Shown here: positions 102-133 of the stretch, piece by piece
Numbering within the stretch: position 1 is the first letter of the stretch
How the letters are laid out: each line of letters starts with the position of its first letter
Assembly: GCA_000004985.1 (NCBI GenBank)
Contig: GG739194.1
DNA length: 3,225 nt
Reading direction: 5' to 3' (one strand)
Source of the DNA: Naegleria gruberi
Taxonomy: Eukaryota
Made by a program: the position numbers and the translations under genes
Notes under the pieces: generated by a model
Seen by the model: only the letters and a program-made list of their open reading frames with translations
Database searches by the model: none
Told to the model about the DNA's origin: nothing

Positions 102-133
102 GGGGGTAAAAAAGGTTTTCACCTTTTTACCAG
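102..133 (-). other. Internal transcribed spacer 1 (ITS1), unusually short (~32 nt)
   Basis: This is the interval between the SSU 3' end (GGATCATT motif, rc of + 134-143) and the start of 5.8S homology (~101). The + sequence gggggtaaaaaaggttttcacctttttaccag contains an inverted repeat (ggtaaaaa(a)gg / cctttttacc, 105-115 vs 122-131) able to form one ~10-bp hairpin. Boundaries are +/- a few nt. Confidence 0.7.

Follow-up and report, generated by a model that had tools for sequence, protein, structure and literature searches.

The ITS1 spacer between the SSU and 5.8S rRNA genes of Naegleria has a well-known length: it measures 33 bp, next to a 5.8S gene of 175 bp, in N. gruberi, N. australiensis, N. 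clarki, N. italica, N. laresi, N. galeacystis, and others, and 34–42 bp in N. jamiesoni, N. andersoni, N. pussardi, N. lovaniensis, and N. fowleri, with a second N. fowleri entry at 84 bp (PMC3167841, in which the summarized ITS1 lengths go back to De Jonckheere 1998 and Pelandakis et al. 2000). Vahlkampfia, which belongs to the same family-level group and has normal-sized rRNA genes, has a similarly minimal ITS1 of 28–31 bp and a shorter 5.8S gene of 145–155 bp (PMC3167841), compared with 174–175 bp for Naegleria. As a standard diagnostic character of the genus Naegleria, the 33-bp ITS1 serves in species typing worldwide, and one study drew 442 Naegleria ITS sequences from GenBank (PMC10100766). 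The rRNA genes of Naegleria are located on a ∼14-kb circular plasmid that also has an A+T-rich non-rDNA part (PMC5805870), and the SSU gene can harbor Nae.S516, an optional twin-ribozyme intron (composed of GIR1, which is a capping ribozyme, GIR2, and a homing endonuclease) that is present in 21 of 70 Naegleria isolates, 70% being intron-less (PMC1464144).

The window analyzed here is a 3,225-nt stretch of DNA that holds, on its minus strand, the beginning of a 5.8S gene, a complete ITS1, and most of an SSU gene, followed by a run of Ns and by spacer sequence upstream of the rRNA genes (Table 1). In a local scan with Rfam covariance models, the SSU rRNA ends at position 134 (−), which is the last model position of RF01960 (SSU_rRNA_eukarya) and closes the SSU sequence ...GGGAUCAUUU, and the 5.8S rRNA begins at position 100 (−) with AACUCUG..., corresponding to model position 1 of RF00002; both ends are placed with high posterior probability. 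The spacer left between these boundaries is 33 nt long and has a G+C content of 39%, and the same 33 nt lie between the SSU and 5.8S Rfam boundaries of two metagenome contigs (L049 and L012). An earlier interpretation of the window, made from its letters without database searches (below, the sequence-only reading), had placed a spacer of ∼32 nt at positions 102–133, counting the A at position 101 as part of the 5.8S; the one-base difference is a matter of convention, and the extremely short ITS1 is real. The possibility, named at the same time, that the 5.8S segment might be a pseudo-copy is not borne out, since the segment scores 54.1 bits although it is cut at model position 103 by the window edge, and 84 bits, with the gathering score at 42, are reached by the full-length 5.8S genes in the near-identical contigs L049 and L012.

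Table 1. Features of the 3,225-nt window, with the evidence for each
Feature	Position	Strand	Evidence
5.8S rRNA gene, 5' 100 nt, cut by window edge	1..100	-	RF00002, 54.1 bits, model 1-103
ITS1, 33 nt, RNA CUGGUAAAAAGGUGAAAACCUUUUUUACCCCCA	101..133	-	gap between covariance-model boundaries
Single-stranded 3' tail CCCA, joins hairpin to 5.8S	101..104	-	comparison of ITS1 variants
ITS1 hairpin 3' arm, RNA ACCUUUUUUACC, one U bulged	105..116	-	fold, inverted repeats, pair counts
GAAA tetraloop, GNRA type by sequence	117..120	-	fold
ITS1 hairpin 5' arm, RNA GGUAAAAAGGU	121..131	-	MFE fold, inverted repeats, pair counts
SSU rRNA gene, 3' 1454 nt	134..1587	-	RF01960, 999 bits
Naegleria primer site	134-154	-	exact primer match
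S516 site, uninterrupted	1504/1505	-	alignments to intron-bearing relatives stop at 1504
669-N run (scaffold gap), hides SSU 5' part and part of 5' ETS	1588..2256	.	sequence; mapping onto L049 and L008
G+C-rich upstream transcribed spacer, inferred 5' ETS	2257..2520	-	99.3% identity to L049 637-1601
Non-ribosomal spacer, A+T-rich (23-32% G+C), contains short direct repeats	2521..3225	.	composition, repeats, no Rfam match

Several features tie the window to Naegleria. The Naegleria genus forward primer GAACCTGCGTAGGGATCATTT (Pelandakis et al. 2000, quoted in PMC3167841) has an exact match, with 0 expected by chance, that ends with the last base of the SSU, although Vahlkampfia and Willaertia, too, are amplified by the genus primers (PMC3167841). 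In addition, the first 15 bases of an N. fowleri-specific primer, GTGAAAACCTTTTTT, are found in the ITS1 of the window, over the loop and 3' arm of the hairpin described below. Scanning metagenome contigs for CCTGCGTAGGGATCATT gave 70 loci, ∼45 of them rDNA and the rest chance matches in bacterial genes; 17 of these loci are 91%–99.7% identical to the window in the SSU and have an ITS1 of 33–40 nt followed by a separate 5.8S and an ITS2. The genus reverse primer, at the 5' end of the LSU, is found without mismatch in 13 of the close relatives, 396–738 bp from the forward primer, and with one mismatch in L003, the only one checked among four loci of the L003 type. The distance from forward to reverse primer in close relatives is 394–738 bp, implying an ITS2 of ∼101–443 bp if a 33-bp ITS1 and a 175-bp 5.8S are assumed.

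One of these relatives is the 14,434-bp contig L049, which is 99.7% identical to the window over positions 1–1512 and 99.3% identical over positions 2257–3221, including the non-ribosomal spacer. It joins LSU, 5.8S, SSU, 5' ETS, and A+T-rich spacer in one contig and matches the window on both sides of the N run. It carries a GIR1 ribozyme at 14046–14242 (−), scoring 202.7 bits, within an insertion of the twin-ribozyme type (13165–14434) at SSU position 516. Alignments of the window to L001 and to the L003-type loci (L003, L033, L039, and L060) likewise break at the S516 site, where the window itself is intron-less, in keeping with the optional status of Nae.S516. L049 is without the SSU 5' exon, and a search for terminal overlap as a sign of circularity found none, the contig breaking between the S516 intron and the 5' ETS. 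Taken from primers, spacer lengths, intron ribozyme, and literature, the evidence that the locus is of the Naegleria type (Heterolobosea, Vahlkampfiidae) is strong but indirect, and the idea that ITS1 length could give a clue to the identity of the organism proved sound, 33 nt being the published Naegleria length.

To place this length in context, ITS1 was measured in the relatives by anchoring on the conserved 5.8S motif CGATGAAG. Within the Naegleria-like clade it is 33 nt in nine loci (the window included) and 34, 35, 37, 38, or 40 nt in the others, so that near relatives span 33–40 nt across the 17 metagenome loci. The ITS1 of the window thus has the same position, length, and flanking primer site as that of Naegleria species, and the clade range matches the published 33–42 bp, with no difference detectable in these features. 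In rDNA loci further removed (70%–77% SSU identity) that share the SSU 3' end, ITS1 measures 39, 89, 115, 155–176, 312, and ∼480 nt. The minimal spacer is therefore a feature of the Naegleria-like clade, as published, and is not universal in the wider group. As such it is textbook knowledge; its practical value is that it marks the window as probable Naegleria rDNA-plasmid sequence.

We consider it highly probable (about 0.9) that positions 101–133 (−) are the genuine ITS1 of a Naegleria rDNA unit resembling that of N. gruberi. The sequence-only reading had associated the short spacer with a reduced, compact rDNA of the diplomonad or microsporidia-like kind, an attribution that fails on several counts. 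The SSU is ∼2.02 kb long in intron-less relatives (L008 402–2420) and has large inserts relative to the SSU model in the V4 region of the window, as opposed to the shortened SSU of microsporidia and diplomonads (∼1.2–1.45 kb, without expansion segments). Microsporidia have no ITS2, their 5.8S being fused to the LSU, whereas here the 5.8S is separate, an ITS2 is present in the relatives, and in L049 and L012 ∼140 nt lie between the Rfam matches to 5.8S and to a separate LSU. Giardia is the classical example of very short ITSs, and G. intestinalis, cited as the eukaryote with the shortest ones, likewise has only a few tens of nucleotides between SSU and 5.8S (PMC9082867), but its spacers are ∼89% G+C (10.1101/2020.09.30.321331) and its rRNA genes drastically shortened, compared with 39% G+C and an SSU of ∼2 kb in the present, free-living case. 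With Naegleria primer sites and GIR1 found as well, a compact-rDNA lineage can for practical purposes be dismissed. It is also scarcely credible that the short spacer was created by a collapsed or chimeric join in a poor assembly, or that it comes from a degenerate copy of the rDNA. The window is indeed of low quality, with its 669-N gap, isolated Ns at positions 706, 1547, and 2353, and a 5.8S in which two single bases shared by all relatives are missing, but the identical 33-nt ITS1 with its flanks recurs in four metagenome contigs with different dataset prefixes (L012, L049, L058, and L059), one-base variants of it are found in five further contigs (L026, L008, L009, L050, and L057), and 33 nt equals the published length (PMC3167841). 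A somewhat larger, though still small, chance attaches to the homology boundaries differing from the true RNA ends, such that part of the hairpin stays on a mature rRNA (e.g., on a 5'-extended 5.8S) and the excised spacer is shorter still: the ends were set by covariance models and field convention. Yeast has 5'-extended 5.8S forms of this kind. The Naegleria 5.8S, moreover, is reported to be unusually long, at 175 nt (PMC3167841). Both models nevertheless match in full and with high posterior probability exactly up to positions 134 and 100, and the tail adjoining the 5.8S varies in sequence and length among relatives, as expected of discarded RNA.

The genuine 33-nt ITS1 can be folded almost entirely into one hairpin. 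On the plus strand, positions 105–115 (GGTAAAAAAGG) and 122–131 (CCTTTTTACC) form the near-perfect inverted repeat that had been noticed in the sequence-only reading, at the same place; six As in one arm face five Ts in the other, which leaves one base unpaired. The minimum free-energy fold of the ITS1 RNA, ..(((((((((((....))).)))))))).... at −10.9 kcal/mol, bears out the single stem-loop proposed at that time: an A/U-rich stem of 11 bp, in which one U is bulged and either end has two G-C pairs, capped by a GAAA loop, with two unpaired nucleotides between the SSU 3' end and the hairpin and four between the hairpin and the 5.8S. When 153 nt of sequence context, SSU helix 45 and the beginning of the 5.8S among them, are folded together, both the MFE and the centroid structure retain the hairpin. 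Dinucleotide shuffles of the ITS1 average −5.1 kcal/mol (z = −2.85), and 3 of 200 fold as well as the native sequence, so that, taken alone, the predicted fold of the window is only moderately beyond what chance would give for an A/U-rich sequence. Conservation in relatives is the stronger evidence for the hairpin.

The hairpin is present in all nine distinct ITS1 sequences of the clade. All six variants that were folded form this one hairpin, always from the third nucleotide onward, with z values of −2.85 to −4.9. The variants differ as follows: in L001 the bulge is gone and two U-A pairs are replaced by U-G; in L013 the loop-closing U-A pair is C-G and one G-C pair is A-U; the L003 type has a compensated GAUUU/AAAUU insertion in the stem and a six-base loop (GUAAAA) in place of the GAAA found in the other eight sequences; and in L037 and L062 only the lengths of the A and U runs differ. 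The pair that closes the GAAA loop is U-A in the window, U-G in L001, and C-G in L013, and the loop is of the GNRA type as judged by sequence and predicted fold. Variation in ITS1 length is concentrated in the 3' tail between hairpin and 5.8S, which differs between relatives in both sequence and length.

The A and U runs are of unequal length among the variants, and plain alignment with MAFFT puts the arms out of register; a small covariance model was therefore built from the ITS1, and the nine distinct clade sequences were aligned to it, five chance hits with E-values of 0.29–0.43 being left out. Of the cells in this alignment, which is fitted to the structure and comprises no more than nine distinct sequences from close relatives, 96.9% pair, and both sides have changed in 3 of the 11 pairs (4 cells), namely the three loop-proximal ones, while 4 of the 11 pairs are invariant across the clade. 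Slid controls show no double changes, and shuffles reach the observed values in 0–5 of 500 cases for all measures except the number of further pair types (69 of 500). The retention of the hairpin in nine sequences, the three doubly changed pairs, the compensated insertion, and the concentration of length variation in the 3' tail together suggest that selection acts on the hairpin, which would probably serve as a compact element in pre-rRNA processing. That the comparison of relatives lends modest support to selection on the ITS1 hairpin is what is slightly new here: we found no description of the hairpin or its covariation in the searchable literature, and a full-text search for the ITS1 string GGTAAAAAGGTGAAAACC returned no paper.

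The same data must be weighed against the possibility that the spacer is a normal short Naegleria ITS1 that needs only to be short and cleavable, its hairpin having no role of its own and being a by-product of slippage-prone A and T runs. The arms do consist mostly of A and U runs, which pair easily and whose lengths drift among relatives (5–8 As versus 4–7 Us); the window fold reaches only z = −2.85, with 3 of 200 shuffles doing equally well; and the clade is shallow, with four stem pairs that never vary. A pure by-product, on the other hand, would not readily account for pairing kept in 96.9% of cells while the sequence changes, for double changes at the three loop-proximal pairs and none in the slid controls, for the compensated insertion in the L003 type, or for a hairpin that stays constant while the 3' tail and ITS2 vary widely. 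We regard an idle hairpin as possible, though rather unlikely.

What a selected hairpin might do can be considered by comparison with yeast, where ITS1 is 361 nt long and contains the processing sites D, A2, A3, and B1. Both organisms face the same task, in that pre-40S and pre-60S RNA must be split from each other and the 18S 3' and 5.8S 5' ends formed, but yeast has separate A2 and A3 sites together with binding elements for proteins and RNase MRP, for which the Naegleria ITS1, with one hairpin and two and four flanking nucleotides in all, has no room. Since the SSU rRNA becomes part of one subunit and the 5.8S/LSU rRNAs part of the other, the transcript must be cut at least once within the 33 nt or at their edges. 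Drawing on the yeast and human pathways, we infer a single-cut mechanism in which the hairpin would fold the spacer on itself, leaving the junctions with the mature ends single-stranded, exposed, and at a constant spacing. In a first step, a single endonucleolytic cut within the hairpin or next to it would separate the pre-40S and pre-60S parts of the transcript; the 18S 3' end would then be made at site D by a Nob1-type cleavage, and a short 5'-to-3' trim of the 4- to 10-nt tail would finally generate the 5.8S 5' end. The GAAA loop could contact a protein or RNA, and the one-hairpin layout would replace the multi-site A2/A3/B1 arrangement of the long yeast ITS1. A literature search on Naegleria pre-rRNA processing and ITS1 structure found no paper. 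It is reasonable to infer, in line with the sequence-only reading, that Naegleria may use an unusual, simplified processing pathway; the more specific proposal, that the GAAA-capped hairpin is the only cis-element needed in ITS1 and that a single cut beside it dispenses with the A2/A3 (RNase MRP) layout, is put forward tentatively and may well prove wrong. If it is true, a free-living eukaryote with full-sized rRNAs would provide a natural minimal system for what an ITS1 must do, and the hairpin could interest those who study the minimal requirements of pre-rRNA processing.

Outside the Naegleria-like clade, a search for the hairpin with the ITS1 covariance model gave only chance-level hits in distant loci, and the fold of the 38-nt ITS1 of L044 is no better than that of shuffled sequences (z = −0.95). 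In a set of distant heterolobosean-like loci with ITS1 lengths of 155–176 nt (L010, L025, L047, L063, and similar ones), ITS1 opens with a hairpin within its first 45 nt, starting UGGUAA (UAAUAUCAU...AUGAUAUUA), which the ITS1 covariance model missed. This hints that a hairpin close to the 5' end of ITS1 may predate the Naegleria clade.

The remainder of the window yielded a number of minor observations. The window 5.8S is without one base at positions 93/94 (CUCUG-GCAAUGG versus CUCUGUGCAAUGG) and another at positions 49–52 (GGCAAAA-GCG versus GGCAAAAAGCG), the full versions being found in 17 of 17 close relatives and in the Rfam consensus; together with the isolated Ns, these two gaps look like sequencing error rather than biology. 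The Rfam hit to the SSU nominally covers positions 134–1590 (model 1–1831), being stretched over the N run, and a mir-51 match at 233–277 inside the SSU (16.9 bits against a gathering score of 70) is noise. Judged from the relatives, the run of Ns hides ∼565 nt of SSU (L008 402–965) and ∼650 nt of ETS (L049 1–636); the true gap is thus ∼1.2 kb, and 669 Ns is an underestimate. The presence of a 5' ETS is deduced from L049: the contig begins 17 nt upstream of the point that corresponds to the SSU 5' end of relatives. Within the 5' ETS, at positions 2257–2280, lies a short repeat of the GGTTGG/GGCTGG type (CCAACC on the RNA strand); it is much longer in L049 (560–660), abuts the N run, and may have caused the assembly to break there.

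Further upstream, the G+C content falls sharply near position 2520, from ∼45%–50% to 23%–32%, a drop that could mark the putative start of the transcribed region (promoter/TSS); comparison with L049 puts it ∼0.9 kb upstream of the SSU. Positions 2257–3225 were scanned permissively with Rfam and for ORFs, and nothing was found, the long "ORFs" all running through the N gap. Positions 2521–3225 fit the A+T-rich non-rDNA part known from the Naegleria rDNA plasmid (PMC5805870). They contain two short, imperfect direct repeats, 2921–2938/3001–3018 (CGGAAYCGYCTGAATCGC) and 3018–3034/3110–3126 (CAGCCGTTCnnnAGTTG), spaced 80–92 bp apart, which are possibly candidate spacer-repeat or promoter elements of the plasmid, bearing in mind that two-copy families can arise by chance.
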